Shown here: positions 1-17,771 of the stretch, in pieces
Layout of the letters: each line of letters starts with the position of its first letter
Position numbering within the stretch: position 1 is the first letter of the stretch
Assembly (NCBI GenBank): GCA_040379745.1
Contig: JBEIKL010000001.1
Coordinates: 1-59,483 of the forward strand
DNA: 59,483 nucleotides
Direction: 5' to 3'
Source: Bdellovibrionales bacterium
GTDB taxonomy: Bacteria > Bdellovibrionota > UBA1018 > CAIMNF01
Position numbers and translations under genes: made by a program
The notes under the pieces: model-generated
What the model was told of the DNA's origin: nothing
Databases searched by the model: none
The model's input: the letters and a program-made list of their open reading frames with translations, nothing else

Positions 1-819
1 GATCGCGCTGAATCCAAAGTCGTGATGATGGCTTCCACTGAAGGTGGAATGGAAATCGAAGAAGTGGCTGAACAGCACCCTGAGAAAATCTTCCGCGCGG
101 TAATCGACCCGGGTACGGGTTTCATGCCTCACCACGGTCGCACTCTCGCTCTTGCGCTTGGTCTTCCGACCGAGATGATGAAAGACGCAGTGGCGTTCTT
201 CAAAGGAATCTACGATTGCTTCATGCAAATGGATTGCTCTCAGGTCGAGATCAACCCGATGGTCATCACTGGCGACAACAAATTGCTCGCGCTTGATTGC
301 AAGATGAACTTCGACGAAAACGCACTCTTCCGTCACCCTGAAGTGGTTGAAATGCGCGATCTTCTCGAAGAAAACGCTCAGGACGTGGAAGCTTCCAAAT
401 ACGAACTTGCTTACATTGCGCTCGATGGAAACATCGGTTGCTTGGTGAATGGTGCGGGTCTGGCGATGGCGACTCTCGACATCATCAAGCTCGCTGGTGG
501 TACACCGGCGAACTTCCTCGATGTGGGTGGCGGCGCTTCGAAAGAAAAAGTGACCCAGGCGTTCAAGATCATTCTCAAGGATCCGAAAGTGAAAGCGATC
601 CTCGTGAACATCTTCGGCGGAATCATGAAGTGTGATGTGATTGCAGAGGGCGTGATCGCTGCTGCAAAAGAGCTTCAGCTTTCTGTTCCTCTCGTGGTTC
701 GTCTCGAAGGAACCAACGTGGAACTCGGAAAGAAACTTCTTTCCGAGAGCGGATTGAAAATCACACCGGCAGACGATCTTGCAGATGCTGCTAAAAAAGT
801 AGTGGAGGCAGCGAAGTAG
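1..819 (+). CDS. sucC: succinyl-CoA synthetase (ADP-forming) beta subunit, C-terminal part; the 5' end lies outside the window
   Basis: Frame 1 is open from base 1, so the M at 22 is internal. Motifs [24 protein letters not shown] and [16 protein letters not shown] are present. sucD follows 27 nt downstream. Confidence 0.95.
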
Positions 820-3297: not shown

Positions 3298-3785
3298 ATC
3301 AGGAAGAACAAAACAAGACCTACGCTTCTTTTCAAGGAATCAAGAATGTGATCGTGGTGTTCTCGTCGAAGGCCCAGTCTTTCGATGAGGCCGCTCTGGA
3401 AAACTTCATCCATCACGCCTATCCGGGGGCGAAAGTCTTTTTTATTTCCACCAGCGGTCAGGCGATCGGCAAGAAGGCTCCATCCAAAGTGGATCTCTTG
3501 ATTGATTTCACCCAGCCAGGTGCCCGTCAGTCCCTGTTGTTTGCACTGAAAATGAGACAGAAGACCCGCTACGCGATCGGACGCAAGGCAGGTCTGTATT
3601 TCCGGTCCAAGAGGTATGACCGGATCTATGATGAGAAAAATGATTCTGCCAAACCAAAGGACTATCTGGCAGGTGAAACCTGGGCACAACGTAAAGTGCT
3701 GGAACTCGCAGGGGTTCCGGTCGTTCGCCAGGGCGGAGTGACTCAGGATCGCAGTAAGGAAATTGCGCTCGAGATCAGACGCTGA
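3294..3785 (+). CDS. hypothetical protein with a weak resemblance to the N-terminal half of GT9 glycosyltransferases
   Basis: ATGA overlap with the bcp stop. 163 aa with no signal peptide. The block [31 protein letters not shown] resembles the DLvIDlq..l.sa.l..la.a..riG block of heptosyltransferases. Confidence 0.5.
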
Positions 3786-3813
3786 TCCTGCAAGCAGCGT
3801 CGGGAATGGACCG

Positions 3814-5259
3814 ATGGCTCAAGGAATTTTGAAAATCGCAAATCAGGCTTGGAAAACCCTGATCTCCCTCAAATTCGCCGTCATGGTGATGGTGGCTCTG
3901 ACGATTTCGCTGATCGTAGCGACGTTCATTGAGTCCAACGTCGATACCAAAACAGCCCAATACTATGTCTATCGGACCTGGTGGTTTTTCAGCTTGCTCG
4001 GGTCTTTTGGCGCGTTGATTCTGGCTGTTGCCATCAGTCGTTGGCCTTGGAAGAAAAAACACACGCCGTTCCTCATGGCCCACGCGGGTATCCTGATGAT
4101 CCTCGTTGGTTCCTGGCTCACTTATTCCAAAGGGATCGACGGAAGCATGCAATTGACCGAAGGCGAGGTCAGTTCATCAGTCGAGCTCGACCAGCAAGTG
4201 CTCGTGTTCAAGAAGAACGAATCCATGCACTCGGTTAGTTTTCCATGGATGCCCGCATCCGTTGCGGAAAACTTCAAACCCAAGCCTTATTCTGAATTCG
4301 GAGTCCTCGTTGAAAAACTGATTGCCGATTCCACGCCGAACTTCCAATTCAATCCGGCTCCGGAAGGAAGCACGGAAAAAACGGGCTCAGCTGTTCTGGT
4401 CAAAATCTTGGGGGCACCGATGGGTGGCACACCGGAGATCTGGATGTGGACCGGTGATCCTGCCTGGGCAACCCAGAAAATGGGGCCTGCACGATTCTTG
4501 ATCCGTTCCGCTGATACGAAGTTACCACCAAGCGAACCGGGTGAAGCTCGTTTCGAATTCATCGTTTCAAAAAAGGGCGAGCTTTCTTTTGAAGCGATCT
4601 CTCCTCGTGGTGAAAAGCGCGGCGGTAAAATCAACTTTATGGGAACCGATCCGGTGGTCGTCAATCCGGGCTGGCGCATGCCGATTCAGTTGATGGTGAA
4701 AAAGTTCGTTCCTGTTGCGATCAATCAGACAGAATATGTGCCCGCAAAAGAACGCTCGAATAATCCGGTTCCGGCGATTCGCATTTCACTTCTGGAAAAC
4801 CCGGCTTCAAAGCTTTGGTTGGCGCTCGGCGACCGTGCTGAATTCACCAGTCAGGGGGTGGATCGCATCTCGGTGGGTTACTTCCAAAAGAGAGTCATTC
4901 TTCCATTCGCACTTCGTCTGAAAAACTTTGAAATGAAACATAATCCCGGAACGATGGATCCATCCGCGTATGCTTCCCACGTGCAGGTGATCGAGAACTT
5001 TCAAAAGTCCACTGAAGAAATGGATGCATTAACGGTGCACACCATTCAGATGAATGAACCATTGAAAGCTCAGGGGTTCACTTTCTATCAGGCGAGTTAC
5101 ATCCCTGATTTTCCGAGAGTGACCACGACCGTATTGTCCGTGAACCAGGATCCCGGTCGTTTCCTGAAGTATGCCGGGTCCCTGTTGCTCGTCCTCGGAT
5201 CCATTCTTCTCTATCTTACCAAAGTCGTTACCCGAAAAAAGGCGGTCGTCGCATCATGA
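3814..5259 (+). CDS. resB: cytochrome c biogenesis protein ResB/Ccs1 (system II)
   Basis: N-terminal TM segments and a large periplasmic loop. The C-terminal block is GFTFYQASYIPDFPRVTTTVLSVNQDPGRFLKYAGSLLLVLG. I chose the ATG at 3814 because the ORF-track start at 3763 overlaps the upstream gene. ATGA coupling to ccsA. Confidence 0.8.
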   Translation: MAQGILKIANQAWKTLISLKFAVMVMVALTISLIVATFIESNVDTKTAQYYVYRTWWFFSLLGSFGALILAVAISRWPWKKKHTPFLMAHAGILMILVGSWLTYSKGIDGSMQLTEGEVSSSVELDQQVLVFKKNESMHSVSFPWMPASVAENFKPKPYSEFGVLVEKLIADSTPNFQFNPAPEGSTEKTGSAVLVKILGAPMGGTPEIWMWTGDPAWATQKMGPARFLIRSADTKLPPSEPGEARFEFIVSKKGELSFEAISPRGEKRGGKINFMGTDPVVVNPGWRMPIQLMVKKFVPVAINQTEYVPAKERSNNPVPAIRISLLENPASKLWLALGDRAEFTSQGVDRISVGYFQKRVILPFALRLKNFEMKHNPGTMDPSAYASHVQVIENFQKSTEEMDALTVHTIQMNEPLKAQGFTFYQASYIPDFPRVTTTVLSVNQDPGRFLKYAGSLLLVLGSILLYLTKVVTRKKAVVAS

Positions 5260-6962
5260 AAAAAATCGCTTCAGTTTTATTTGTTTTATCCTTGTTTTCT
5301 TCTGCATTCATCGCAACAGCCGGTGCCGAAGACCGTTTCCCCGAGCCCCTGAAGGGCGCGCGCCTTTCCGACCTCAGACAGATTCCTACCCAATCAGGCG
5401 GTCGCTTGAAACCGTTTGACGAATTTGCGCGTGAGACGGTCCTTTCCATGACCGGCATGCGTTCCTTCGGGAAGCTGGAGCCGAGCGAGATGGTGGTTTC
5501 AATGCTGATTGAACCGCGCGTTTGGTCCGATCTTCCCATCATCCGTGTTTCCAATGATGAATTGAAAAAACAAATGCTCCTTGACCTCGGTCGCAAGTAT
5601 TTTACGCCGAACGAACTGATGAAGAACAATGTGTTCCTTCAATATGCCCAAGGCGTTCAAGGGCAGGGAGCTCAGGTCACCAGCAAGGGTATCGAGGTCA
5701 CCACCAGCAAGAAGAACCCGCGCACCGAAGAACTCAATCGAGTGGTGGATCGGGTCACGCGGTTCCAGAACCTGGTCGCAGGACAGTTGTGGATGGTCAT
5801 GCCGGATCAGACCGTGGCATTGTCTGCAGGTCAGGATCAAAAATGGATCGCCCTTCAGGAATCCATGAAGTCAGATCATCCTGCCATGCAAGCCGTGGTG
5901 GGTATGCTCAAGGCCTATTTGGAGCGCAATTCTAACGATTTCAATGAACAATCGCGTTTGGCGCGTGAACGGGTTTCCGCTGCGGTCCCGGGATTCGCCG
6001 AGCATCAATATGAGTTGAAGTCCGAGGTCCTGTACAATCTTCTTCGTCCGTTCCTTCAGGCGATGATTTTCTATCTCCTGGCCGGTATCTTGTGGATGTT
6101 CGCCAGTGGACACGCCATTGCCCGGATCATGGCAAAAATCACCACGTTCCTTGCGCTTTCCATGCACACCATCGGGTTCGCCTTGCGTTGTTATGTGGCT
6201 GGTCGTCCGCCGGTGACCAATATGTATGAATCGATCATCTGGGTCAGCTTGGGAGTGATGGTTTTCGCACTCTTGATCTATGCCAAACACAAGCATGTGA
6301 TCCTGCTGACCACTTCCACGATCTTGGCCGGTCTTTCGCTTTTTGCCGCCGATGCCGCACCGATGGTGATGGATCCGACCATTCGTCCTTTGGTACCGGT
6401 TTTGCGCAGTAATTACTGGCTCACGATCCACGTTCTGACGATCACACTCAGTTATGCCGCATTCATGCTGGCGATGGGGATTTCCAACATTTCGCTTTTC
6501 CGATTCACGCGCCCGGCAAGTGAAGCGAATGAGCAACGTATTTCACTTCTCAATCAATTGTCTTATCGGGCATTGATGTTCGGAACCGTCTTGCTTGCCG
6601 CAGGCACGATTCTCGGCGGGATTTGGGCGGATTATTCCTGGGGTCGATTCTGGGGTTGGGATCCGAAAGAAGTCTGGGCCCTCATCGCTCTTCTTGCATA
6701 CATGGCAGTTTTGCACGGCCGATTCACCGGTTGGGTGGGCAAGTACACCTTCCCGCTGTGGACCGTGATCTGTTTCAGCACCGTGCTCATGGCTTGGTAT
6801 GGTGTCAATTTCGTACTCGGAGTCGGCTTGCATTCCTATGGATTCTCGAATGGCGGTCAGGCGGTAATGGCATCATTCGTGATTTTTCAGGGACTGTTCT
6901 GCGCTTGGGTGCATTTCCGCAAGAAGAAAGATGCATCGGGTTCCGCCCATGCCGTTTCCTGA
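5256..6962 (+). CDS. ccsA: cytochrome c-type biogenesis protein CcsA/ResC (heme handling, W-rich motif)
   Basis: Signal or TM N-terminus and a polytopic membrane protein. The WWD-type motif WADYSWGRFWGWDPKEVWALIALLAYMAVLH is present. Adjacent to resB. Confidence 0.85.
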   Translation: MKKIASVLFVLSLFSSAFIATAGAEDRFPEPLKGARLSDLRQIPTQSGGRLKPFDEFARETVLSMTGMRSFGKLEPSEMVVSMLIEPRVWSDLPIIRVSNDELKKQMLLDLGRKYFTPNELMKNNVFLQYAQGVQGQGAQVTSKGIEVTTSKKNPRTEELNRVVDRVTRFQNLVAGQLWMVMPDQTVALSAGQDQKWIALQESMKSDHPAMQAVVGMLKAYLERNSNDFNEQSRLARERVSAAVPGFAEHQYELKSEVLYNLLRPFLQAMIFYLLAGILWMFASGHAIARIMAKITTFLALSMHTIGFALRCYVAGRPPVTNMYESIIWVSLGVMVFALLIYAKHKHVILLTTSTILAGLSLFAADAAPMVMDPTIRPLVPVLRSNYWLTIHVLTITLSYAAFMLAMGISNISLFRFTRPASEANEQRISLLNQLSYRALMFGTVLLAAGTILGGIWADYSWGRFWGWDPKEVWALIALLAYMAVLHGRFTGWVGKYTFPLWTVICFSTVLMAWYGVNFVLGVGLHSYGFSNGGQAVMASFVIFQGLFCAWVHFRKKKDASGSAHAVS

Positions 6963-7908
6963 TTGGATAGCCTCATTCGAACAGCTTCGTGAAGGATTCG
7001 ACGGCCTGATCGAATTCAGTGCTCCGTTGTCCAAAGTCACTTACTATCGCATTGGTGGGCCAGCAACGGTTCTCGCCACTCCGAAATCGGTGCGCGATCT
7101 GGAGCGACTTTCTCGCGCGATCGCACAAACGGGAGTGCCGTTTTTCATGCTCGGCTGGGGATCGAATCTGCTGTTCAGAGATGAAGGATTCAATGGCGTC
7201 GTCATCCGGATCAAGAACCTGTTCAATCAAATCGAAGAATTGCCTGATTCGCAATTGCGAGTTGGCGCCGGAGTAGGCGCTTCCACTCTCTTGCGTCGTG
7301 CACAGGAACAGGGCTATGGCGGACTCGAGTGCCTGACCGGAATTCCAGGCTCGGTCGGTGGCATGGTCGCGATGAACGCCGGCACCCACTTGGGCGAAAT
7401 GGCTGGTCTCTTGTCACAGGTGGAAACGGTTACGGTAGGAGCTTCAGAAGAGGACTTCGTGGTGAAATCCGTTGTGCCGAATTTCAGGAGTTTTTCTTAT
7501 CGGCGCAATCACTTTCTCCAACCGCACGAATTGGTGACTCATGTGGAACTCCGTTATCATCAGGAAGAGCCTTCAAGAGTCAAATCCACGATCGATGATC
7601 TTTATCAGCGTCGAAAGCTCACCCAGCCGGTGGATTATCCTTCTTGTGGAAGTGTGTTCATGAATCCCAAAGGAAAAAGCGGTGAGGGTGGAGTCGGACT
7701 CAATGCCTGGCAAGTGATCGATCAACTGGGGCTGCGCGGACATCGCATCGGTGGCGCTCAGATCTCTGAAAAGCACTCCAACTTCATCATCAATCTCGGT
7801 GATGCCAAGGCTGCCGAGGTGATCGCTTTGATCGAGCTGGTGAAGGTGCGCGCGCGAGTCGATCTTGGGATTGAGATGCACGAGGAAGTGAAGATCATCG
7901 GGAACTAG
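6931..7908 (+). CDS. murB: UDP-N-acetylenolpyruvoylglucosamine reductase
   Basis: TYYRIGGPA, GWGSNLLF, GIPGSVGGMVAMNAG and SCGSVFMNP. The start could instead be the ATG at 6949. Confidence 0.9.
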   Translation: MHRVPPMPFPDWIASFEQLREGFDGLIEFSAPLSKVTYYRIGGPATVLATPKSVRDLERLSRAIAQTGVPFFMLGWGSNLLFRDEGFNGVVIRIKNLFNQIEELPDSQLRVGAGVGASTLLRRAQEQGYGGLECLTGIPGSVGGMVAMNAGTHLGEMAGLLSQVETVTVGASEEDFVVKSVVPNFRSFSYRRNHFLQPHELVTHVELRYHQEEPSRVKSTIDDLYQRRKLTQPVDYPSCGSVFMNPKGKSGEGGVGLNAWQVIDQLGLRGHRIGGAQISEKHSNFIINLGDAKAAEVIALIELVKVRARVDLGIEMHEEVKIIGN

Positions 7909-9296
7909 TGGAAAATATTTTTCATCCGGTTCAGGAAATTCAGATTGCAGTAATCGAGTAAACTCGATTTTTTCACGCCAAATACCCGTTCCCGGAGCTC
8001 ATCCCGAACCCGGGCCAGTTTCTCATTGTTTTTCAGGATGTCATCCGACCCGCGCACGGGAATCAGTGAATCATCGATCAGGGCCCGCAGACTGGAACGC
8101 TTCATGCCGGCATCCCGGAGTCTTTCGAGGGTTTCGGCGAATCGCGAGGATTCACCGAGGATTCCGTAACCATCCGACCCCAGCACTACGGTCATTCCGG
8201 CTCGATGGATTTTCTCGATGGTTTTGACCAGGTCCTTGATTTCCGCCTGATGGATGCGGATGTTCGATTCGATGTTCGCTTCAAAACGGATTTTCATGCC
8301 TTGGTATTTGGGATACCTGCTCATGGAACGTTGATGGATCTTTTGAAAGCGGTCAATCGATTCCTGATCGAGCATGTTGATGTGCCCGACCCGAAGAGTG
8401 GCCGGAAGGCATTTCCGTGTGGCGCACTCGCGGAGTGCTCCCCAGATTGCATCATAGAATTTGCCGGTATTCGATCGTTCAAATGCATGGATTCTCACCG
8501 TCCCGCTAAACTGTGGACTGCTTTTGAAGGCGCTGATGATCCTGTCCTTGATTTTTTCTGTGCTTTCTTTTGCAAAGGAATCCTTATCCATCGATTCGTA
8601 AATGCTTCCGGATATGTCGACGCCGTAGATCAGGGGCGGATTGTTCCGGTTACCCATCAAGGATCTTGCATTGCTTAAAGATTCGTCGAATTTGTTTTTC
8701 GGAACATTCGATCGGGGAATCGAATAGTAATACTCGGAGTTCATCCCTTTTGCCCGATACATCCGTTCCAGTGTTCCCAGGATTTTCCGATCGGCGAGAT
8801 ATTCCGGAACACTGAAAAGGGATCTTCCTGCCTCATCGAACTTCGCTGTTTTCAGATAATGTTCGATCGCCGGAACGATTTTTTCAGGATCTTTCCGAAA
8901 CAGTTCGTCGCGGATCGTGGTCGAAGCCAGATAGGATCTGCGCGGATCACCGCCCATTTCCCTCATCTCAAACATGGATTCAAGGATTCCCTGTGGCGTG
9001 GTTCCGGGAATCCGGCTTGAAATGTTCTCGCAAAGTTTGGTGAGGTTGACGTCTTTCACCATATCCTTCAGATCCTCTGGCGGAATCAGATGTCCGAACT
9101 TGTCATTCAAGTGCGCAGGGTTACTGAAAAGATCCAGTGCGGGCAGTTCTCCAAGTTTGCCATCATAGGCGGCTTCGATGTCCACCAGTCTCGGTAGGTA
9201 CTGTAAGTGTTCATGATCATTCCCGGCCAAAGCCGAATGGAAAGTGAGTATGAGCAGGAATGCGAATGTTCCGAACTTACGGATGAATCCCATCAT
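7905..9296 (-). CDS. secreted adenosine-deaminase-like / amidohydrolase-superfamily protein (divergent), paralogue 1
   Basis: I chose the ATG at 9296 (MMGFIRKFGTFAFLLILTFHSALA signal peptide). Ordered motifs are GNDHEHLQY (HxH), GVDISGSIYE, RIHAFE, LRVGHI, FEANIESN and LGSDGYGI. They follow the order of the ADA motifs HxH, DLAGDE, HAGE, RIGHG, CPxSN and TDDP. Confidence 0.5.
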   Translation of the reverse strand: MMGFIRKFGTFAFLLILTFHSALAGNDHEHLQYLPRLVDIEAAYDGKLGELPALDLFSNPAHLNDKFGHLIPPEDLKDMVKDVNLTKLCENISSRIPGTTPQGILESMFEMREMGGDPRRSYLASTTIRDELFRKDPEKIVPAIEHYLKTAKFDEAGRSLFSVPEYLADRKILGTLERMYRAKGMNSEYYYSIPRSNVPKNKFDESLSNARSLMGNRNNPPLIYGVDISGSIYESMDKDSFAKESTEKIKDRIISAFKSSPQFSGTVRIHAFERSNTGKFYDAIWGALRECATRKCLPATLRVGHINMLDQESIDRFQKIHQRSMSRYPKYQGMKIRFEANIESNIRIHQAEIKDLVKTIEKIHRAGMTVVLGSDGYGILGESSRFAETLERLRDAGMKRSSLRALIDDSLIPVRGSDDILKNNEKLARVRDELRERVFGVKKSSLLDYCNLNFLNRMKNIFH

Positions 9297-9364
9297 TTTC
9301 TGATCGGCATTGTGACGGAATAACTGTTGAGTCAAGTCGTTGACGTTGTTTTGGCGGGAAAGGT

Positions 9365-10750
9365 TCAGGGGATGGGGATGAAAATCTCGGAAATATTCCT
9401 CATGAACCAATCCGCACACGGGTTTTTCGCGCTTTTCGCTGATTTCTTGAGCCGGTTCAGCATTTCATCGGTATTTGAGGAGAGCTTTTTCTGAAAATCA
9501 GGATCCCATTTTTGACCGGAAAGGGGTTCCTTCGCTTCCTGTGCCAAGCGATTGATCGAATCCTCACTGAGCCCGGCGTCCATCAGTCTGGACAGCGACA
9601 TCGAGTGATTGGATCGAACACCGAGGATGCCAGCGCCATCGCTACCGAGCGCCACTTTCATTCCGGATTTGTGGATGGATTCGATATTGCGAACCAAATG
9701 ATCGGTATAGGAACGGTTCAGGGTCAGGTTCGATTCCAAGTTCGCTTCAAAAACAATGTTCACGTTGTTCTTGAATTTGGCGAGTCTCTGGATGTCGTTC
9801 TTGCTCAGTCCCTGGATGTGACCAATGCGAAGGTTTTTAGGCATTTTACCGTTCTTTGCCGAGGTCTCCATCGCTTCCCAGAAATCATCATAGAACTGAC
9901 CACGATTGGTTTCCTCAAAACTGTGAATCCGGAGTGAGCTGTTCAACTCCGAACTGGTCTCGAATAATTGTTTCAAGCGCGAGTTCGTACTTTTTTGTCC
10001 AGTGCGCTCATAGATGCTTCCGGAGACATCCGCACCATGCAACCAACCTTCTTTCACGCCGGTTTCCAATTGGTGTTTCAGGTTTTGAAATGCCTTATCG
10101 CTTCCGTTGCCCAGGGTTTCCCGGGTGATGGAAAGCATGTTCTCGGTCATGTATCCTTTTTTACGATAAATCTCACCGATGGCTTTCAGTGTTTTTGCAT
10201 CCGCCAATTCCTGAGGGACGGAAAAAACGGTTTTGCTATTTTGCCAAATTCGGCCATTTTTCAAGCTGTTCTCGATTGAGTTTTTCAGGATCGAATGATC
10301 CTGATCCATCTTGAAAAAAAGTTGATTCCTTGTCGAGGCTGCGGCCAGATAGGAGTTTTTCGGATGCGCATGCCATGGTTCCAGGGCGAAAAAGCTTTTC
10401 ATCGCTTTTTGAGGAGTCACTCCGATTTTGCGCATTTGTGGCTTTTGGGCGATTTTTCGACAAAGACCATCGAAAGACTCTTCCCGGATCATCTTTTTCC
10501 ATTGGTCGTCCGTAAAAAGATCCTGCCCGAATCGGGCATGGAGATTGCTGATCATCCGATTGTTTTGCGAAATCAGACTCGATGCACGGTATTCTCCGAG
10601 GTAACCATCGGTCGCTTTCAGGATATCCTCAAAACGGGATTGATACTGGAGATGTTCATGCACGTTTCCAGCCCATGAGAATGGAATGGCAAGGATCGCA
10701 ACAGCAATCGACTCGAGCAAGACTCGATATGGATTCATTATCCTCATCAC
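9365..10750 (-). CDS. secreted adenosine-deaminase-like / amidohydrolase-superfamily protein (divergent), paralogue 2
   Basis: Signal peptide, then GNVHEHLQY, GADVSGSIYE, RIHSFEE, LRIGHI, FEANLESN and LGSDGAGI. It is alignable by eye with the neighbouring gene over its whole length. Confidence 0.5.
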   Translation of the reverse strand: MMRIMNPYRVLLESIAVAILAIPFSWAGNVHEHLQYQSRFEDILKATDGYLGEYRASSLISQNNRMISNLHARFGQDLFTDDQWKKMIREESFDGLCRKIAQKPQMRKIGVTPQKAMKSFFALEPWHAHPKNSYLAAASTRNQLFFKMDQDHSILKNSIENSLKNGRIWQNSKTVFSVPQELADAKTLKAIGEIYRKKGYMTENMLSITRETLGNGSDKAFQNLKHQLETGVKEGWLHGADVSGSIYERTGQKSTNSRLKQLFETSSELNSSLRIHSFEETNRGQFYDDFWEAMETSAKNGKMPKNLRIGHIQGLSKNDIQRLAKFKNNVNIVFEANLESNLTLNRSYTDHLVRNIESIHKSGMKVALGSDGAGILGVRSNHSMSLSRLMDAGLSEDSINRLAQEAKEPLSGQKWDPDFQKKLSSNTDEMLNRLKKSAKSAKNPCADWFMRNISEIFIPIP

Positions 10751-10874: not shown

Positions 10875-11690
10875 ATGAAATCCCCGATCAAATACGTCGT
10901 TCCCGCCTTTTTGTTGATTGTTGTCGCTTGTGCAACTTCGCCCTTGGGGCGAAAGCAAATGCTCCTGCTCACCGAAAATCAGATGAACGATCTGGGGGCG
11001 AAGAGTTTCGAGGAATTGAAACAACAGACACCGATTGAAACCGACGCTGCCATCAATCAGTATGTGAAATGCATCACCACTCCGATCACGATCGAATCGG
11101 ACAAGCAGATCAAGGTGCCCAGTTGGGAAGTCGTGGTGTTCAAGAAGGATGAGTTGAACGCTTTCGCGCTTCCGGGTGGGAAAATCGGAGTCTATACCGG
11201 CATGATCAAAATGCTTCAGAACGATGCCCAGTTGGGTGCGGTGATCGGTCACGAAGTGGGGCACGTGATTGCCCAGCACGGAAACGAACGGGTTTCAGAG
11301 GGATTGGGTGCCAGAGCGGTATTTCTGGTGCTGGATTACCTGATCGGAAACAAGATGGAAAGAACCACGAAAAACACGATTTTTGTCGGACTGGGCATTG
11401 CCACTCAAGTGGGCGTGTTCCTTCCATTCAGTCGCACCCATGAAAGCGAAGCCGACGTCATCGGCTTACAGTTGATGGCAAAAGCCGGATTCGATCCGAA
11501 TCAGTCGGTTGAAGTGTGGAAGCTGATGAAAGCGAATTCAGGCACAAACCTTCCGGAAATTCTTTCCACCCACCCTTCGGATGATACACGCATTGCGAAC
11601 CTTTCATCCAAAATGCCCGAAGCGATGGGATATTACACAACTGCTCAAGCAGCCGGTCGGAAGCCGGTTTGTCCGAAACCGAAAATCTGA
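10875..11690 (+). CDS. M48-family Zn metallopeptidase lipoprotein (LoiP/YcaL-like)
   Basis: Lipobox LLIVVAC, the HExxH motif in GHEVGHVIAQH, and a downstream ESEADVIGLQLMAKAGFDP block. Confidence 0.85.
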   Translation: MKSPIKYVVPAFLLIVVACATSPLGRKQMLLLTENQMNDLGAKSFEELKQQTPIETDAAINQYVKCITTPITIESDKQIKVPSWEVVVFKKDELNAFALPGGKIGVYTGMIKMLQNDAQLGAVIGHEVGHVIAQHGNERVSEGLGARAVFLVLDYLIGNKMERTTKNTIFVGLGIATQVGVFLPFSRTHESEADVIGLQLMAKAGFDPNQSVEVWKLMKANSGTNLPEILSTHPSDDTRIANLSSKMPEAMGYYTTAQAAGRKPVCPKPKI

Positions 11691-11697
11691 TCCGGCA

Positions 11698-12162
11698 CTA
11701 TTGGGTTTTTTTCGGTTTTTTCCGCTTGATCATCTTCTTCAGGGCGATCAAGTGAAGGCCGAACGCTACCGTCCACAGTCCGCTGGCGATCAGGTGGATC
11801 GGAATCAGGATCTTCCGTCCGGTCTCATCGGCGGTTGTTTGTAGTACATACCCCGACCAGATCATCGGAACGATCAGGAACATCAGGATGCGTCCGGTGT
11901 GAATCTTCAGCTTTCCGAATTCGCGAACGGTTCCATTCTTCCAGCGCGACCAGATGTGGTTATGCCAGATCATACCGATGGCCAGTACCAGAAGTGGAGA
12001 AGTGATGATGTGCGCGTTGTAGGATACCACTTGCCACGGACTGGAGACGGGCGAGAATTCGTCCACGGGCTTGACGAAGTACTTGAACCACGCAAGGGCA
12101 AGGCCACTGCCGATGACCAACACATTGGTCACATTCTGGATGCGGATGTCCTGCTTCTTCAT
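11698..12162 (-). CDS. His-rich 4-TM inner-membrane protein, possible cytochrome b-like / DUF4405-like
   Basis: 154 aa with four hydrophobic helices. Conserved-looking His residues occur in or near them: NAHIITSPLL, WHNHIW, KIHTGRILMF, IPIHLIASGLW and FGLHLIAL. ATGA overlap with the upstream FMN-binding gene. Confidence 0.45.
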   Translation of the reverse strand: MKKQDIRIQNVTNVLVIGSGLALAWFKYFVKPVDEFSPVSSPWQVVSYNAHIITSPLLVLAIGMIWHNHIWSRWKNGTVREFGKLKIHTGRILMFLIVPMIWSGYVLQTTADETGRKILIPIHLIASGLWTVAFGLHLIALKKMIKRKKPKKTQ

Positions 12163-12716
12163 GGCATCGACCCTTTTTCTCGCAAAGCGAGGTGAATCGC
12201 AAGCACGCGTCTGGCGGCCTGAGTGGAGGCCTGGGCGGTGAGTGATGCTCCCGTCACGAATGGAATGCGCCGTTTGACTTCAAGATCGGCATTGAGTGGA
12301 GACTGATCGAATTTCCGGTACCACTGGTCTTTCGGCATGTATTCCAGAGGCTCTTCGAAGGCCAGTACTTCGAGATGACGGATTCGGTCTTCGGAATCGA
12401 CGATCAAGATGAGTGATTCCGTGTGAGACCGGACACGATGGGTGTCGGTGTAGGCGTACTCGTCCTTGCCGGTTTTTCTGTTTTTAGCGTGATAACGGAC
12501 CACCAGGGCACTCGGTGCCTCCAGTCCGGAAAGTTCCTTCGCTTTTCCGATTTGTTGCCGTGTCAGATAGCGGGTCTCCGGCGAGGTGGTCCATGAATCG
12601 CTTTCCGGAAATGCCGCATTCAGCGCTTCCTTCAGCGTGATGAACACCTTGGCCTGTGCGCAAGGCACAGACCAAGTGTTCATGAATAGCATCATCAGAA
12701 AAACCAAACGGTTCAT
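12159..12716 (-). CDS. periplasmic FMN-binding-domain protein, predicted ApbE flavinylation substrate
   Basis: I chose the ATG at 12716 (MNRLVFLMMLFMNTWSVPCAQA signal peptide). The N-terminal LKEALNAAFPESD and C-terminal IPFVTGASLTAQAS blocks match the FMN_bind [ST]GA[ST] flavinylation motif. Confidence 0.6.
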   Translation of the reverse strand: MNRLVFLMMLFMNTWSVPCAQAKVFITLKEALNAAFPESDSWTTSPETRYLTRQQIGKAKELSGLEAPSALVVRYHAKNRKTGKDEYAYTDTHRVRSHTESLILIVDSEDRIRHLEVLAFEEPLEYMPKDQWYRKFDQSPLNADLEVKRRIPFVTGASLTAQASTQAARRVLAIHLALREKGSMP

Positions 12717-12720
12717 ATGC

Positions 12721-14046
12721 TCAGAATACGAAGCCGACCGAGAGGTTCGCTTGGTCGACCGTCCTTCCTCCTGCAATGGTGAACCATTCATAATCGCCTT
12801 TCAACACAATCTGGGAAATGGGTTTGTAGTTGATGCCGGCCACCAGAACATTGATCTTGCTGGTGTCAATGAATCCGTAACCCGCTGGTACCGACTTCTG
12901 CGTGTTCACGAACTCGTAACGCGCGAATGGCATCAATGACTTGCCGTTGGTGTTTCCGTTCAGAAGATCGTATCCCGCTTGTACATAGGCCCCGAATTGT
13001 TCATCTCCCACCGAGTTCGCACCACTGACGCCCTTGAGTGAGTTCAATTGATCCACTTCCGACAGACGGGTCCAAGCGGCCAGTGCGCGAAAATCCCATG
13101 CATTCCACGTGTAATGGGTGTGGGCTTCCACCATGCGCATCGGGATCGAGTTGCGATCGGTTCCGGCTTTCGGCGTAGTCGTTGCTTCACCGACATAAGC
13201 CGACAACCCGGCGAGTAATCCCGGCACTGCGGTGTAGTCGGCACGACCAACCCAGGCGAACTGGTTGCCCATGACATAATCCTTGCGTTGTCTTCCCCCG
13301 CGGATACCCTCCGCCGCTGAGAAGCCGGATGCGTTCATACCGGTCACTAGGTAGGTTCGATAAGTAATTGGGCCGATGTCACCAAAAATACCCGCGCCGT
13401 TTTCCACCCAGGTGGTCGGAATGATCAGGGTTTCAACCAACGTCCGGTTGGAACCGAGGAAGGTCACGGGTTCGTGGGTTTCGTTGATCAAACCCACCGG
13501 CATCAGCATGCTTCCGAAGCGGAAATTCAATTCAGACGTGTGGAAGTGATCGAAGTAGAGGAACTCGATATAAATCGACTTTCCACCGTGTTCCCACTCG
13601 AGTTCACTGTTCATGACCCAGTCATCACTGAATTTGTAACCGGCGTAAAGAACCATGCGCTTCAAATCGTATTGGCTTTGGTACCCGTTCGGTAGCGAAG
13701 TGTAGCGTGAAAAACGACGCCCACTTTGTGTGGTTCCATCGGGATTGAAGCCACCCATGAATTGTTCGAACAGGAGTTCTCCGTAACCACCGAGCGAGAT
13801 CCCGGGCTTGGAGCGGTAGACTTTGGAGGCCGCAGGTCCGAGACCGTATTGCATCTGATCGGCCATCGGTTCGGCGGCAGCTGCACCCAGTTTCACTTTT
13901 TCGACTTCCTGGCCGATGATGTCCATCTGACGTTGCAGTTCTTCGATCCGGTCGTTGACCTTGTTGTCGGCCGCAAATGCAGATGCGGTGATCAGGGTGG
14001 TCAGGATGATGAGTGAAAGTGCGAGATTCGCAATCTTCTTTCTCAT
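12721..14046 (-). CDS. outer-membrane porin-like beta-barrel with an N-terminal coiled coil (OprO/P-like architecture)
   Basis: I chose the ATG at 14046 (MRKKIANLALSLIILTTLITASAFA). Coiled coil DRIEELQRQMDIIGQEVEKVK, then alternating aromatic/Gly-rich strands and a C-terminal ...ANLSVGFVF. ATGA overlap with the apbE stop. Confidence 0.55.
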   Translation of the reverse strand: MRKKIANLALSLIILTTLITASAFAADNKVNDRIEELQRQMDIIGQEVEKVKLGAAAAEPMADQMQYGLGPAASKVYRSKPGISLGGYGELLFEQFMGGFNPDGTTQSGRRFSRYTSLPNGYQSQYDLKRMVLYAGYKFSDDWVMNSELEWEHGGKSIYIEFLYFDHFHTSELNFRFGSMLMPVGLINETHEPVTFLGSNRTLVETLIIPTTWVENGAGIFGDIGPITYRTYLVTGMNASGFSAAEGIRGGRQRKDYVMGNQFAWVGRADYTAVPGLLAGLSAYVGEATTTPKAGTDRNSIPMRMVEAHTHYTWNAWDFRALAAWTRLSEVDQLNSLKGVSGANSVGDEQFGAYVQAGYDLLNGNTNGKSLMPFARYEFVNTQKSVPAGYGFIDTSKINVLVAGINYKPISQIVLKGDYEWFTIAGGRTVDQANLSVGFVF

Positions 14047-15104
14047 AGGTTTCTCTCTTTCTCTTTTTTGCAATGAGTGGGTTTGATCCATTTCAACCGA
14101 CTGATGTCGGCATCGAGCGGTGCATTCCAGTCACAACTGGTTTCCGCGATCCACTGGCCTTTTCGAGTTCCCGGTCTCAGGATCAAGATGCGCTCTTGAT
14201 TCCGATTCGCCCAATCCAGCGCTCTTTTCGCGCCCAGGACAAAAACCTTGGTGCGACAATCCGCTTTCAGCGCACTCGAATGAAGAACAGTGATGCTTCC
14301 TTCGTGCTCGATCGGTTTACCATTCAGTGGGTTCAGAAGGTGGCCAATTGTTTTCATGCGTCCGTTGACTACGGCAACGTTGCGATGAACCGAGTTGCTC
14401 GAAGTGGCAATTGAAGGAGCGTCGGTTCTGAAGGTGAGGAGGCGCTGATTGCGGTCTGATGGATTCGCCACATCAATCGGTCTTGGTCGGTTGCCGATCA
14501 TCGCAATTTGTCCACCGAAGTTCAAGAGAGCGTCTTTCACTCCGTTTTTTTTGAGATAGGCAATGGCCTCATCGAGTGCGGCGCCCTTGCCGAAGCCGCC
14601 TTCTTCAAAGCCGGCATGATTTGATTTTTTGGTGACCGAGAGAGTATTCGTTCCGGCGTTGAGTGTGAATTGAAAGTGTTTTGTTCCTGAATTCAAGAAA
14701 GCAGACTTCCATTCGGAATCGGCAGGCTGTTTTCCGCCGGTACGCATTCCCCATGCTTTCACCAAAGGGGCAAGTGCAGGGCTGAATGCCCGGTTGGTTT
14801 CGGTTTCGCACTCGACGGCTCCGCGCAAATCGGAAGACAATTCCGGCGAAAGCAAAACCGGCTGATTCGCAGGGGAGTGATTCAGACGTGAAAGTTCGCT
14901 CTCCGTTCTCCAGGTTGAAAGGCGATCTTCCGTGTTGCGGATGAATTTTAAAACCCCTTCACTGTGGGCAACGGCCAGTTCACGTGACAATCCCTCGAAC
15001 GAAATTGAAAGTTCCGTGCCCATGGCGAACACTTTCCGTTCGAACGGTTCAGCGTTCGCGGATGGGTTCATCACGACTAGAAAGAGAAATGCCAATCTGA
15101 GCAT
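14043..15104 (-). CDS. apbE: FAD:protein FMN transferase (ApbE family)
   Basis: Signal peptide MLRLAFLFLVVMNPSANA. Motifs GFEEGGFGKGAALDEAIAYLKKNG, NFGGQIAMIG and SIATSSNS. First gene of a four-gene overlapping operon. Confidence 0.8.
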   Translation of the reverse strand: MLRLAFLFLVVMNPSANAEPFERKVFAMGTELSISFEGLSRELAVAHSEGVLKFIRNTEDRLSTWRTESELSRLNHSPANQPVLLSPELSSDLRGAVECETETNRAFSPALAPLVKAWGMRTGGKQPADSEWKSAFLNSGTKHFQFTLNAGTNTLSVTKKSNHAGFEEGGFGKGAALDEAIAYLKKNGVKDALLNFGGQIAMIGNRPRPIDVANPSDRNQRLLTFRTDAPSIATSSNSVHRNVAVVNGRMKTIGHLLNPLNGKPIEHEGSITVLHSSALKADCRTKVFVLGAKRALDWANRNQERILILRPGTRKGQWIAETSCDWNAPLDADISRLKWIKPTHCKKEKERNL

Positions 15105-15110
15105 GAGGTC

Positions 15111-15138
15111 ACTATAGAGGTTTTCGGGAACGAGTCAA
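15111..15138 (-). promoter_or_regulatory. sigma-70-type promoter, TTGACT-16 nt-TATAGT, for the apbE operon; it predicts a leaderless mRNA
   Basis: The minus strand reads TTGACTcgttcccgaaaacctcTATAGTgacctcATG. Only 6 nt separate the -10 element from the apbE ATG at 15104. Confidence 0.45.
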
Positions 15139-15141
15139 GTG

Positions 15142-15164
15142 TTATTGATAACCATTATCAATAA
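15142..15164. promoter_or_regulatory. Fur-box-like operator
   Basis: TTATTGATAACCATTATCAATAA has perfect 10-nt inverted arms around CCA. The core TGATAACCATTATCA (15146-15160) matches the Fur 7-1-7 consensus TGATAATCATTATCA at 14 of 15 positions. It lies 3 nt upstream of the -35 element above. A weaker second box, GATTATTGACATTATC, is at 15201-15216. Confidence 0.55.
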
Positions 15165-15221
15165 GTAAACCAATCCCGTTGAGTGGTGCCATTCCAGCCA
15201 GATTATTGACATTATCGTGGG

Positions 15222-16667
15222 GTGAGCCGATCTGATATCCTGATGCGGATGATTCCGGCGAAGGATTGCCCCATCACTCCGATTTTAGCGCAGACACTCC
15301 GAAAGGGTTCCCGGTACCGCCGTTCGATCGCCTGGGGGCTTTTTCTGTGCCTGGTGTTTTCACCGGTTTCCATCTTTGCAAAACTTCCGGAATTCCCATC
15401 CGATTCCTGCGGTCTCAACTGTGAAAAGAAGAATGCCGAAAAGCTGCTCGAATCACTCGATCGGGTGAGCGAACCCACCGTCAATGCCTGTGAGCCCGTG
15501 GTGGAAGTACCGTCAGTTCCTGAAGGGATCCTCGGAGCCCGTGAACTCATGGCCCAGATCTATGGTTCTTGCGATGTCTTGAAGCTGCCCAACGTGGAGA
15601 ACTTCATCACTGCATTCGAAACCGTGCCGAAGCAGCCGTATCTGCATTGGGCTACTGATTCTTCCTGCATTAATCCCACTGCTTGTCGCACGTATCAAAA
15701 AACGGGGCAATTCAAGACCGATTCGTGCCTCAAGGCATCCTGCAATGCGGTCCAATATCCGCCGATGTATCTCATGGGTGGAAAAGTCAATGTAGCCAAG
15801 CCCGAGTCGAATTATGCGATCCATCCAGGCGGCGTGAGTGGTATCGATTGTTCCGGATTCGTTTCGGTGGCAATGGCGATGCGGGGATTACGACTGACTC
15901 CAACACAGAAGTCGAATGTCGCTCTCATGGGGACCGTGAATCTGATCGGTCTCGGTGCGCAAAAGCCGGTGGGAAATCCTGTGGATTGTTTTGATCGCCA
16001 GCAGTTCGCTCCGGGAGTGGCATCGGGTGATCTGATCGTTCAGGGGAGTGACCATGTGGTCATGGTCGATACAGTTGGAAAAGATCCTCTGGGATTCGAG
16101 GAATTCGTCAAGAACTCCTCTTTGGAAGACCTGTTTCAGGCTCATCAGAAGGCGAAGAAGGATCCTTCCGGTTCGTTGAATCTTCCGATTAACGATGTGT
16201 TCAGCGGCAAAAGCGTGAAAAAAATCGAGGATCAAGCCAAGCTACTTGTCAAATTTGCTGAAACGGTTTGTGACGAGCAAGTGGATGAGAAAAATTTCCG
16301 ATTCTCGATCATCCATTCTTCCGCCGCCAATCATCGGATCGGTGCACAGCGGGCACATGCGGCTCCGGGGTTACACGACGCCTTCGGATCCTTCATGGAG
16401 GAAAAAGGGGTTCAAGAGTGCATCGTGGCGCTGAAGAGAAAATGGGAAAAAGAACTGGCTGATCCGATGCTCATTGCAGCGGTTTCAAAGTACAAGACCG
16501 CCGACATGAAAACCTATGACCTGAATCTCAAGGTGAAACTCTTGCGCCACCGTCCCGATTACAAGGGATGCAAAGGAGAACCGTTCAAGCTTCAGTCTTC
16601 ACCGTGCAGTTCCTGTTGTGATCTTCATTCGACTTATGAGGGAATGAATCCGGAGGGATCGAAATGA
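15222..16667 (+). CDS. secreted or membrane-anchored NlpC/P60-family cysteine peptidase (cell-wall hydrolase-like)
   Basis: Hydrophobic anchor IAWGLFLCLVFSPVSIFA. The catalytic Cys context is GVSGIDCSGFVSVAMAMRG (Cys codon 15849-15851). The His context is GDLIVQGSDHVVMVDTVG (His codon 16053-16055), 68 residues later. The start may be the ATG at 15243 or 15249 rather than the GTG at 15222. Confidence 0.6.
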   Translation: MSRSDILMRMIPAKDCPITPILAQTLRKGSRYRRSIAWGLFLCLVFSPVSIFAKLPEFPSDSCGLNCEKKNAEKLLESLDRVSEPTVNACEPVVEVPSVPEGILGARELMAQIYGSCDVLKLPNVENFITAFETVPKQPYLHWATDSSCINPTACRTYQKTGQFKTDSCLKASCNAVQYPPMYLMGGKVNVAKPESNYAIHPGGVSGIDCSGFVSVAMAMRGLRLTPTQKSNVALMGTVNLIGLGAQKPVGNPVDCFDRQQFAPGVASGDLIVQGSDHVVMVDTVGKDPLGFEEFVKNSSLEDLFQAHQKAKKDPSGSLNLPINDVFSGKSVKKIEDQAKLLVKFAETVCDEQVDEKNFRFSIIHSSAANHRIGAQRAHAAPGLHDAFGSFMEEKGVQECIVALKRKWEKELADPMLIAAVSKYKTADMKTYDLNLKVKLLRHRPDYKGCKGEPFKLQSSPCSSCCDLHSTYEGMNPEGSK

Positions 16668-17137
16668 AGAATGTGTTCTTGTGGTGCTTGATGACTATGA
16701 CGGGATGGGCAGGGATGGCGCATGCTTACGACTGCTCCGATCAAAAGCGAATCACCTTGGAAATCATTGAGGCTGAGCTTTCGGGGATTCGCAGTCAGGC
16801 TTCGGACGACTTGCCATCGTGTTTTACCAAAAAAGAATTCAAGACGATTCGGACCGTCCATCAGCCATCCGGGGAATCGAATTTCCTGAAGCCTGAATAT
16901 CGGGTTCCGAAGACGGCGACCGTGAAGGTTTTGAGTGAGCCGGATCCAGCAGAAAATCGCCGTTTAATCGAAGTGAGGTTCTCCTATCCAACAATCGATG
17001 GAAGAACCATACAGGATGAGCTGCTTTATCGCAGGATTCCCGCCTCGCGCGCCCAGCGACGGGGGTGTGCGGAGATTTTGGCCATTCCACGACATTTCTC
17101 CTTGCGGGAAGACTGCACCACTCCGGCTGGTCAGTGA
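16664..17137 (+). CDS. hypothetical small secreted 4-Cys protein
   Basis: ATGA overlap with the NlpC/P60 gene stop. Signal peptide MKNVFLWCLMTMTGWAGMAHA. 157 aa with no recognised motif. Confidence 0.55.
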   Translation: MKNVFLWCLMTMTGWAGMAHAYDCSDQKRITLEIIEAELSGIRSQASDDLPSCFTKKEFKTIRTVHQPSGESNFLKPEYRVPKTATVKVLSEPDPAENRRLIEVRFSYPTIDGRTIQDELLYRRIPASRAQRRGCAEILAIPRHFSLREDCTTPAGQ

Positions 17138-17243: not shown

Positions 17244-17771
17244 ATGAAAACACTGAAAATCACACTGATGCTGATGGTGGCTTTGGCCGGAAACCTCGCA
17301 AACGCGAAGGTGGTCCGATTGGCCAATATCAGTCTTGGTTACGGCAAACTCGATGTGGGCGCGGGAAACGGCTACATCAGTGCACTGACTGATTCCAAAA
17401 ACCAGCTTTTGGGAATCTCGGTCAAAGCCCTTGCCGACCTCTTCGGGATCGAATCCAATATCTCCAAATACATCGAAGTGGGAAGTCTTGCCAAAGGCGA
17501 GTCCCAGCGGTTTCTGATGGATGGTGGAAAGAGTGCCATCCTCGTCATCAAGCCGAAGAGTGGTTTTACCGGTCAAGGCGGCCAAATCCAACTCAGTATT
17601 CTTACGACAGTAGGTTATATCCATGAAAATCTGGAAATCACCAAGGGTGCCCAAAGCGGACAGTATCGCATCTATCGTGGCGAGCAGATGATCAACCAGA
17701 TCGACCTGAATCTTCGTGGTTACAGCGTTGCTGAAATGAAGGTCGGCTGGTACGACTTGAAGTCCGAATAA
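17244..17771 (+). CDS. hypothetical secreted protein
   Basis: GGGAGAGGG lies just upstream of the ATG. Signal peptide MKTLKITLMLMVALAGNLANA. 175 aa, Gly/Ser-rich and beta-like. I prefer it over the 215-aa antisense ORF. Confidence 0.6.
   Translation: MKTLKITLMLMVALAGNLANAKVVRLANISLGYGKLDVGAGNGYISALTDSKNQLLGISVKALADLFGIESNISKYIEVGSLAKGESQRFLMDGGKSAILVIKPKSGFTGQGGQIQLSILTTVGYIHENLEITKGAQSGQYRIYRGEQMINQIDLNLRGYSVAEMKVGWYDLKSE

Follow-up and report, generated by a model that had tools for sequence, protein, structure and literature searches.

Extracytoplasmic electron transfer based on flavinylation has been recognised as a theme in recent years, and several described systems resemble the four-gene operon reported here. 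This operon lies on the minus strand at positions 11698-15104 of a 59,483-nucleotide stretch (the window; contig JBEIKL010000001.1 of assembly GCA_040379745.1, Bdellovibrionales bacterium), and encodes the flavin transferase ApbE, an outer-membrane porin, an FMN_bind-like protein and a putative four-helix cytochrome b. Méheust et al. (2021, PMC8238504) catalogued ten flavinylation systems as well as P19/FTR1 clusters with FMN_bind genes. The latter are mostly from Gram-positive bacteria and were described as having no membrane electron-transfer component, and neither a porin nor a small cytochrome b occurs in the catalogue (PMC8238504). PepSY-like (FoxB, VciB) and MsrQ-like systems are Fur-regulated and have been implicated in the reduction of ferric or siderophore-bound iron (PMC8238504). 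In Bifidobacterium breve, bfeUO-sifABCDE encodes FTR1, two FtsX proteins, an ABC protein and SifE, an FMN-binding protein described as a 'possible ferric reductase'; these genes and apbE are required for growth under iron chelation (PMC5449479). Huang et al. (2024, mSystems, PMC11334425) showed haem b binding for six-transmembrane DUF4405 proteins whose genes adjoin apbE. The combination of genes in the window had been called no named system in a first-pass annotation made from its sequence, and literature searches indeed found no description of it.

The reading favoured here, with a confidence only a little better than even, is that the operon encodes a Fur-repressed periplasmic ferric-iron reductase chain, in which electrons go from cytochrome b to a covalently bound FMN and which has an outer-membrane pore of its own. 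The genes are, in order of transcription, apbE (14043-15104, 353 amino acids (aa)), the porin gene (12721-14046, 441 aa), the FMN_bind-like gene (12159-12716, 185 aa) and the gene of the four-helix protein (11698-12162, 154 aa), all on the minus strand. The four packed open reading frames (ORFs) of the first-pass annotation were all present at these coordinates, and the ATGA overlaps at 14043-14046 and 12159-12162 and the 4-nt gap at 12717-12720 could be read directly in the sequence. The apbE gene ends with AAC CTA TGA, and the ATG of the porin gene shares an A with that stop (ATGA, 14046-14043). The porin gene ends with TTC TGA at 12721, followed by the gap GCAT and the start of the flavoprotein gene at 12716. 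The ORF finder also gave longer alternative starts at 14091 (porin) and 12791 (flavoprotein), which are unlikely because the downstream ATGs yield proper signal peptides, MRKKIANLALSLIILTTLITASAFA/A and MNRLVFLMMLFMNTWSVPCAQA/K (the slash marks the end of the signal peptide). Since the downstream neighbour, a peptidase M48 gene at 10875-11690 on the plus strand, is convergent with the operon, the latter consists of four genes.

To measure conservation, the porin alignment alone was used as bait against contigs representing one genome per species. At least 572 stretches encode relatives, and the best 80 loci were examined; 66 of these had enough sequence on both sides to be evaluated by profile searches on six-frame ORFs. 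The 80 loci come from at least seven phyla, namely Bdellovibrionota/Oligoflexia, Acidobacteriota, Gemmatimonadota, Planctomycetota, Verrucomicrobiota, Eisenbacteria and Schekmanbacteria, including Oligoflexia, Bdellovibrionales and Bacteriovorax as well as the acidobacteriotal groups Thermoanaerobaculia, Holophagales and Vicinamibacteria. The flavoprotein gene directly followed the porin gene in every evaluable locus (66/66), while the cytochrome gene was present in 61 and apbE in 58. Because all four genes recurred in 54 of the 66 loci with the porin as the only bait, their association is far beyond chance. Exactly the order of the window with nothing more was found in 40 loci, a second apbE was added in nine more, and in a variant order apbE lies between the porin and flavoprotein genes. 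Loci retrieved from the flavoprotein side showed the same gene set, which acts as a portable unit of its own.

Natural fusions of the cytochrome b (N-terminal) with ApbE (C-terminal) were found in at least three sequence clusters (P0251, P0323 and P0356). The P0356 fusion (L090:5303-6733) belongs to a locus in which the porin gene is followed by those of the FMN_bind protein and the fusion, while fur is encoded on the other strand. In these fusions the cytochrome and ApbE parts are joined through the ApbE signal peptide region, which could act there as a fifth membrane helix, in agreement with the topology proposed below. Two apparent FMN_bind::cytochrome fusions (P0301 and P0387) were rejected as probable frameshift or gene-calling artefacts; the reading frame does not seem to continue across their junctions, and the FMN_bind part of P0301 breaks off ahead of the flavinylation motif. 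It was also observed that in many Thermoanaerobaculia loci a second apbE comes immediately after the cytochrome gene but on the other strand, and a TetR-family gene often follows it. Loci with a second apbE are L010, L016-L019, L021, L026, L027, L038, L081 and L086 (12314-13312).

The product of the first gene is unambiguously, by its sequence, an FAD:protein FMN transferase ApbE. It matched PF02424 with an E value of 4.1e-47 (161 bits, cut-off 25.6) over profile positions 1-260 of 266, as the first-pass annotation had led one to expect, and ApbE proteins of solved structure, including 3PND and 6NXI (both at about 1e-19), matched it at 8e-20 to 1e-15. The His of S-H-I-I-D-P in the Vibrio cholerae enzyme (6NXI) is kept as G-H-L-L-N-P and the Asp of A-L-x-A-D is retained, whereas the ATSGDYRN motif is altered to ATSSNSVHRN. 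The N-terminal signal peptide, MLRLAFLFLVVMNPSANA, is as would be expected of an enzyme working outside the cytoplasm.

The third gene had been proposed to encode an FMN_bind-like substrate of ApbE, and this is supported by its signal peptide (ending AQA/KVF), by the site FVTGASLTAQ and by its relatives. The window protein itself gave no Pfam match at E ≤ 0.1 and no match in NCBIfam or among PDB sequences. Among its 168 homologues many carry PF04205 or are labelled RnfG or FMN-binding protein by their sources, and of 32 aligned homologues, which are 35-69% identical to the window protein, 27 matched PF04205 (best E 9.7e-8). The family profile matched the RnfG chain 9eri_G with an E value of 0.032 over 115 positions, with v-t-G-a-s-L-t of the profile aligned onto the I-T-G-S-T-I-T site of RnfG. 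The predicted flavinylation motif of the window protein is T155-G156-A157-S158 (12243-12254, minus strand), as given by the alignment and the RnfG profile match. The motif [ST/A]G[AC][ST]L[ST] was kept in 32/32 aligned homologues, G156 and L159 being invariant. Because this motif is conserved and aligns with the flavinylated site of RnfG, S158 is predicted to be the FMN-bearing residue. The protein is thus probably a divergent FMN_bind/RnfG-like periplasmic protein and a predicted substrate of ApbE.

A second conserved element of this family is D91-x-H93-x-x-R96, which is invariant, with T92, V95 and T97 nearly so. This element (window 12444-12464; residues 85-91..97) has no counterpart in RnfG and might form a substrate or metal site, or the surface on which the cytochrome docks.

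A word-indexed search with the fourth gene product gave four relatives, and an exhaustive profile search gave 476 cluster representatives (clusters at 50% identity). Across 55 sequences with a mean identity of 33%, the only invariant residues were H51, H69, G90, H123 and H137. The codons of the four His lie on the minus strand at 12010-12012 (H51), 11956-11958 (H69), 11794-11796 (H123) and 11752-11754 (H137). The AF2 model (pLDDT 96.3) has helices at 3-29, 42-76, 84-109 and 113-148, with the invariant His on helices 2 and 4 and the helix 4 pair at the canonical 14-residue spacing. Judged by eye, the charges fit the positive-inside rule in an N-in/C-in topology, with both termini and the 72-91 loop in the cytoplasm; the loop has six basic residues and the C-terminus eight. 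In this topology the H51/H123 pair comes to lie towards the periplasmic face and the H69/H137 pair towards the cytoplasmic one, as in a two-haem transmembrane wire.

The best folds found by Foldseek for this protein were HyaC, the cytochrome b of hydrogenase-1 (6g94_A, 4gd3_A), and cytochrome b6/b, with TM scores of 0.52-0.56. The window protein did not match DUF4405 (PF14358) in Pfam; weak matches to this family were obtained for 19 of the 55 relatives (best E 0.0016) and to Ni_hydr_CYTB (PF01292) for 12 of them (best E 1.7e-4), and one orthologue carried a precomputed weak match to the latter. Of the earlier proposal of a four-helix membrane protein with bis-haem-like His, the four invariant His in two transmembrane pairs were borne out, and the families guessed for it, DUF4405 or cytochrome b561, appeared as weak matches in relatives. 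It is concluded from sequence and model that the four-helix protein probably works like a di-haem cytochrome b; it is no demonstrable member of DUF4405 or Ni_hydr_CYTB.

The second gene had been annotated as an outer-membrane porin gene between the apbE and FMN_bind genes, and the structure prediction agrees with this. The protein consists of a signal peptide (1-25), a periplasmic coiled coil (about 28-52), a barrel (82-440) and a C-terminal Phe (...GFVF). Its AF2 model (pLDDT 82.5) showed 16 strands and a helix at 28-52, and Foldseek matched it to 245 PDB chains at E ≤ 0.001. OmpT, OmpU, PorB, OmpF, OmpM1 and DcaP lead these matches, with E values from 2e-11 (OmpT, the best) to 1e-9, at a sequence identity of 8-15% to DcaP and the general porins. 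In Pfam the window porin matched neither Porin_O_P (PF07396) nor BBP2 (PF07642); among 37 sequences of the family, weak matches were found to Porin_O_P in 6 (best 9e-7) and to BBP2 in 11, and also to OMP_b-brl. More than 3000 homologues were found, all unnamed or 'hypothetical', some of them bearing spurious names such as FtsB or DUF1192, which are attributed to the coiled coil.

The best-conserved part of the porin family is not the barrel but residues 182-213, which form a long loop joining strands 5 and 6 and contain the invariant P-x-G-x-x-N-E-x-H-E-P. Its core in the window protein is N188-E-T-H-E-P193 (13468-13485, minus strand), at the position of constriction loop L3; N188, E189, H191, E192 and P193 were invariant in the 37 sequences, which share about 45% identity. 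In general porins L3 forms the pore constriction, and a specific, possibly metal-selective channel is therefore a reasonable suggestion by analogy.

The link to iron begins at the promoter. A near-consensus Fur box ahead of the operon had been noted before and was found again on the plus strand at 15146-15160: the sequence TGATAACCATTATCA, of the 7-1-7 type, has one mismatch among the 14 specified bases of the consensus TGATAATNATTATCA (14/15 positions match). It was the sole match with at most two mismatches in the window; in the shuffle control at the same threshold, 16 of 100 shuffles had at least one match anywhere in the window. AT-rich hexamer repeats around the box span about 15141-15165. 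A sigma-70-like promoter, TTGACT-16 nt-TATAGT, is predicted on the minus strand at 15111-15138 (10/12 in a consensus scan, a pattern match alone), and the box sits 8 nt upstream of its -35 element. At the sequence level, a box adjoining a promoter, as in a Fur regulon, was found. Only 7 nt separate the predicted -10 hexamer from the ATG of apbE (window 15104-15116), so that the apbE mRNA may be leaderless or nearly so, or else the promoter call is wrong.

Scanning of 83 other loci with the Fur consensus gave three matches with at most two mismatches, all just upstream of the operon. A generalised palindrome, TGAKAATNATTMTCA, with up to three mismatches allowed, occurred at 1.27 per kb in orthologous promoter regions vs 0.03 per kb elsewhere (about 50-fold). 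When the three loci that had defined the pattern were left out, 23 matches were found in 19 of 70 promoter regions, and dinucleotide shuffles of the promoter regions gave 0.44 ± 0.70 matches (maximum 3).

Genes for Fur, FeoB or FTR1/EfeU lie beside the four-gene set in 35 of 84 loci. A Fur-family gene lay within 5 kb in 15 loci, an FTR1/FtrD-like gene in 17, feoB in 10, and DyP and TonB-dependent receptor genes in two each, with Pfam checks as confirmation. Clustering of the neighbours excluded the span of the cluster itself, since antisense and read-through ORFs in high-GC DNA otherwise confound it. In L086 a single strand carries the genes in the order Fur, FTR1::FtrD-like, FtsX, FtsX, ABC, ApbE, porin, FMN_bind and cytochrome. 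Four of the adjacent regulators were tested with profile models, and in all four the Fur models outranked those of PerR and Zur, with all scores below the NCBIfam Fur equivalog cut-offs. The first-pass annotation had suggested a reductase induced by iron starvation and coupled to uptake. The conserved Fur-type palindromes and the adjoining fur, feoB and FTR1/EfeU genes are comparative evidence in favour of this suggestion, the reductase function itself being one we infer from the sequences.

Some further genes were observed near the set in related loci. In two loci of Bacteriovoracaceae type (L087:3956-5626 and L074, the latter from Bacteriovorax stolpii) an unannotated 556-aa gene, whose C-terminal region is weakly similar to MauG/MbnH di-haem peroxidases, lies within the cluster, and in L087 it overlaps the start of apbE. 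In the two closest named Oligoflexia relatives (L001:244-2758, minus strand, and L006) genes for a DyP-type (EfeB-like) peroxidase and an unannotated 383-aa protein, which may form an EfeOB-like pair, are divergent from the fur-apbE-porin-FMN-cytochrome cluster. In L003 a DUF3325 gene (6941-7252, minus strand) lies directly downstream of the module, with a TonB-dependent receptor gene 3 kb away; DUF3325 is often found with PepSY-type iron reductases.

In the mechanism we infer for the favoured reading, Fur would leave the box at 15146-15160 under iron starvation and the four translationally coupled genes would be expressed. Exported ApbE would attach FMN covalently to Ser158 of the periplasmic FMN_bind-like protein. 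The four-helix inner-membrane protein would hold two b-type haems, one between H69 and H137 on the cytoplasmic side and one between H51 and H123 on the periplasmic side, and would take up electrons from a cytoplasmic donor or the quinol pool and pass them through the membrane to the flavoprotein. The 16-stranded porin, with N-E-x-H-E-P at the position of the constriction loop, might let in small iron species without TonB, and the reduced flavin would turn Fe(III) into Fe(II). The Fe(II) would then be handed to FeoB, an FTR1-type permease or another inner-membrane transporter. Such a transporter (FeoB or FTR1/EfeU-FtrD-FtsX-ABC) is encoded alongside in related genomes, and for the window it would be encoded elsewhere.

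Several observations weigh against this reading. At the stringency chosen, the palindrome was present in only 19 of the 70 independent promoters in addition to the three defining loci, and the degenerate pattern was drawn up after these three loci had been seen, though it was tested on others. Fur-family boxes alone do not separate iron from other metals, and no gene for Fur, FeoB or FTR1 was found in the window: tblastn of the window with FTR1::FtrD, FtsX, ABC, FeoB, Fur and DyP queries gave nothing at E ≤ 1e-3. A weak Fur-like tblastn match at 54885-55202 was dropped, as Pfam gave it no support. The flavoprotein, cytochrome and porin of the window all fall below every Pfam and NCBIfam threshold and gave no match among PDB sequences, and their assignment comes from relatives and models. 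For the cytochrome, the 18-residue spacing of H51 and H69 is unusual, the Foldseek matches are statistically not significant (E about 0.6-2), and the family profile found no match among PDB sequences. In addition, all related loci are from metagenome-assembled genomes and represent the 80 most similar of more than 572, so that more distant porin homologues may occur in other contexts.

The same components could serve other purposes. A periplasmic reductase for another substrate, such as Cu(II) or Mn, or one with an oxidative-stress or repair role resembling that of MsrPQ, under a non-iron Fur-family regulator (PerR, Zur or Mur), is unlikely. Boxes and proteins of the Fur family are hard to assign to a metal by sequence alone, the adjacent regulators score below the Fur equivalog cut-offs and also match the PerR and Zur models, and the 556-aa gene with its weak MauG/MbnH-like region lies in the cluster of two Bacteriovoracaceae-type loci. 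However, the box of the window fits the Fur consensus TGATAAT-N-ATTATCA and differs from the B. subtilis variants for PerR (TTATAAT...) and Zur (TCGTAAT...), Fur models scored above PerR and Zur models in each of the four regulators, and the accompanying transporters (FeoB, EfeU/FTR1) are iron-specific. Electron flow could also be reversed, the flavoprotein and cytochrome b acting as a sink for electrons from periplasmic Fe(II) oxidation and feeding an Fe(III)-importing FTR1-type permease, i.e. in the role proposed for FtrB/FtrD or EfeB. This would suit the 17 loci in which the gene of an FTR1/EfeU::FtrD-like permease, without any P19, cupredoxin or EfeO/EfeB partner, is co-linear with the set, and the DyP (EfeB-like) gene near the set in two Oligoflexia loci. 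It is nevertheless considered distinctly unlikely: with the midpoint potentials of flavins, FMN would oxidise Fe(II) poorly; the neighbour in 10 loci is FeoB, whose transport does not require oxidation; and the window and many other loci have no FTR1. Most Fe(III)/Fe(II)-chelate couples have potentials well above those of flavins, and the direction of reduction is favoured because of these thermodynamics and the FeoB neighbours.

The first-pass annotation had further proposed a trans-envelope electron-transfer module. Its components were found, but there is no sign that electrons cross the outer membrane, and the flavoprotein would not fit inside so small a barrel. A conduit free of cytochrome c, in which the flavoprotein either binds to or inside the porin or else reduces a diffusible shuttle cycling through the pore, so that extracellular Fe(III) minerals are respired or solubilised as by MtrAB, is rated very improbable. 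The co-inheritance of an outer-membrane barrel with the flavoprotein in 66/66 loci speaks for it, as do the coiled coil and the conserved GLGPAASKVY segment of the porin, which could be a docking site. A 16-stranded barrel is, however, too narrow for an FMN_bind domain (the MtrB barrel has 26 strands), no CXXCH motif occurs in any of the four proteins, and Fur control and linkage to uptake transporters point to assimilation. A bolder version of the favoured reading, seen as quite unlikely, would join the porin coiled coil, the covalent flavoprotein and the cytochrome into one trans-periplasmic complex with a metal-selective pore, independent of TonB and siderophores, in which iron is reduced on entry; in its strongest form it would be a conduit free of c-type cytochromes that reduces extracellular Fe(III). 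Finally, the four genes might be adjacent by chance and share no function. Against this stand the ATGA overlaps, the maintenance of the set across at least seven phyla and the cytochrome-ApbE fusions, and the conservation of gene order effectively refutes it.

The surroundings of the operon in the window are as follows. No riboswitch or other RNA family was found in 11000-16000. Those flanking genes tested that had a Pfam match are housekeeping genes (ResB/CcsA, MurB, aldehyde dehydrogenase (putative proA) and fructose-bisphosphate aldolase), which makes an origin of the operon in a mobile island unlikely; several others tested had no Pfam match. Divergent from the operon, and sharing with it the 117-bp intergenic region that contains the Fur box, is a 481-aa ORF (15222-16667, plus strand) without a Pfam match, whose G-I-D-C-S-G-F motif recalls NlpC/P60 cysteine peptidases. 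It is followed by two small unannotated ORFs (16664-17137 and 17244-17771), and the same three genes, judged by gene size, flank the operon in the contig of the closest relative. ResB-like and CcsA-like genes of System II cytochrome c biogenesis (3763-6962, plus strand) lie about 5 kb from the operon. A CcsA-like gene is also near the operon in the closest relative's contig, and this proximity is probably ordinary shared gene order and not a functional link. Three large minus-strand ORFs had no Pfam match at 1e-5: 34873-38370 (1165 aa), 45913-48612 (899 aa) and 7905-9419 (504 aa).

The carriers of the four-gene set belong to abundant, poorly cultivated phyla of soil and water (Acidobacteriota, Gemmatimonadota and Bdellovibrionota), in which iron acquisition is largely unstudied. 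If the favoured reading is true, it would explain iron uptake by these bacteria in the absence of siderophore receptors, and would give names and testable functions to three large families of 'hypothetical proteins'. The four-helix cytochrome family is also a candidate for the link between the FTR1/P19-FMN_bind clusters (PMC8238504) and the membrane electron pool.

Among known systems, the set is similar in its membrane component to the DUF4405 cytochromes (PMC11334425), which are likewise small membrane proteins encoded beside apbE, have four most-conserved His for transmembrane haem b and have been proposed to supply a flavinylated extracytosolic protein with electrons. They differ in having six transmembrane helices vs four here, where no member reaches Pfam significance, and in their partner, Flavodoxin_4 vs the FMN_bind/RnfG-like protein. 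They are known from Firmicutes and Proteobacteria, whereas the present set occurs in Acidobacteriota, Gemmatimonadota and Bdellovibrionota, always has a dedicated porin, and its haem binding is a prediction. The FTR1/P19 clusters and bfeUO-sifABCDE share with it an ApbE-dependent FMN_bind protein tied to iron uptake, and FTR1::FtrD-like, FtsX, FtsX and ABC genes, types that are annotated in bfeUO-sifABCDE too, immediately precede the set in 17 related loci. Unlike the present operon, the FTR1/P19 clusters have no outer-membrane protein; the window, for its part, has no FTR1, P19 or FtsX. In the PepSY-like and MsrQ-like systems a di-haem inner-membrane protein also sends electrons to the periplasm, but that protein is of a family unrelated in sequence, and these systems are paired with TonB-dependent receptors and not with a passive 16-stranded porin.

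The porin shares its 16-stranded barrel with DcaP of Acinetobacter baumannii and with OmpT, OmpU, PorB and OmpF, and in DcaP the barrel is preceded by an N-terminal periplasmic coiled coil. Different from DcaP and the general porins are the invariant NExHEP at the L3 position and the constant location in a flavin/cytochrome operon, where the former are encoded by stand-alone genes. The flavoprotein probably belongs with RnfG and NqrC to the FMN_bind fold family and has the [ST]GA[ST] site, predicted to be modified by ApbE, but it stands outside any multi-subunit Rnf or Nqr pump and has a cleavable-looking signal peptide in place of an N-terminal anchor. The MtrAB and Pcc conduits have a multihaem c-type cytochrome and a barrel of at least 20 strands, in contrast to the 16 strands and the lack of CXXCH here. 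The module thus appears to merge known ideas of flavinylation, haem and iron uptake in diderm bacteria, and what seems to be new in it is the four-helix cytochrome family, the divergent FMN_bind subfamily and the coupling to a dedicated porin.

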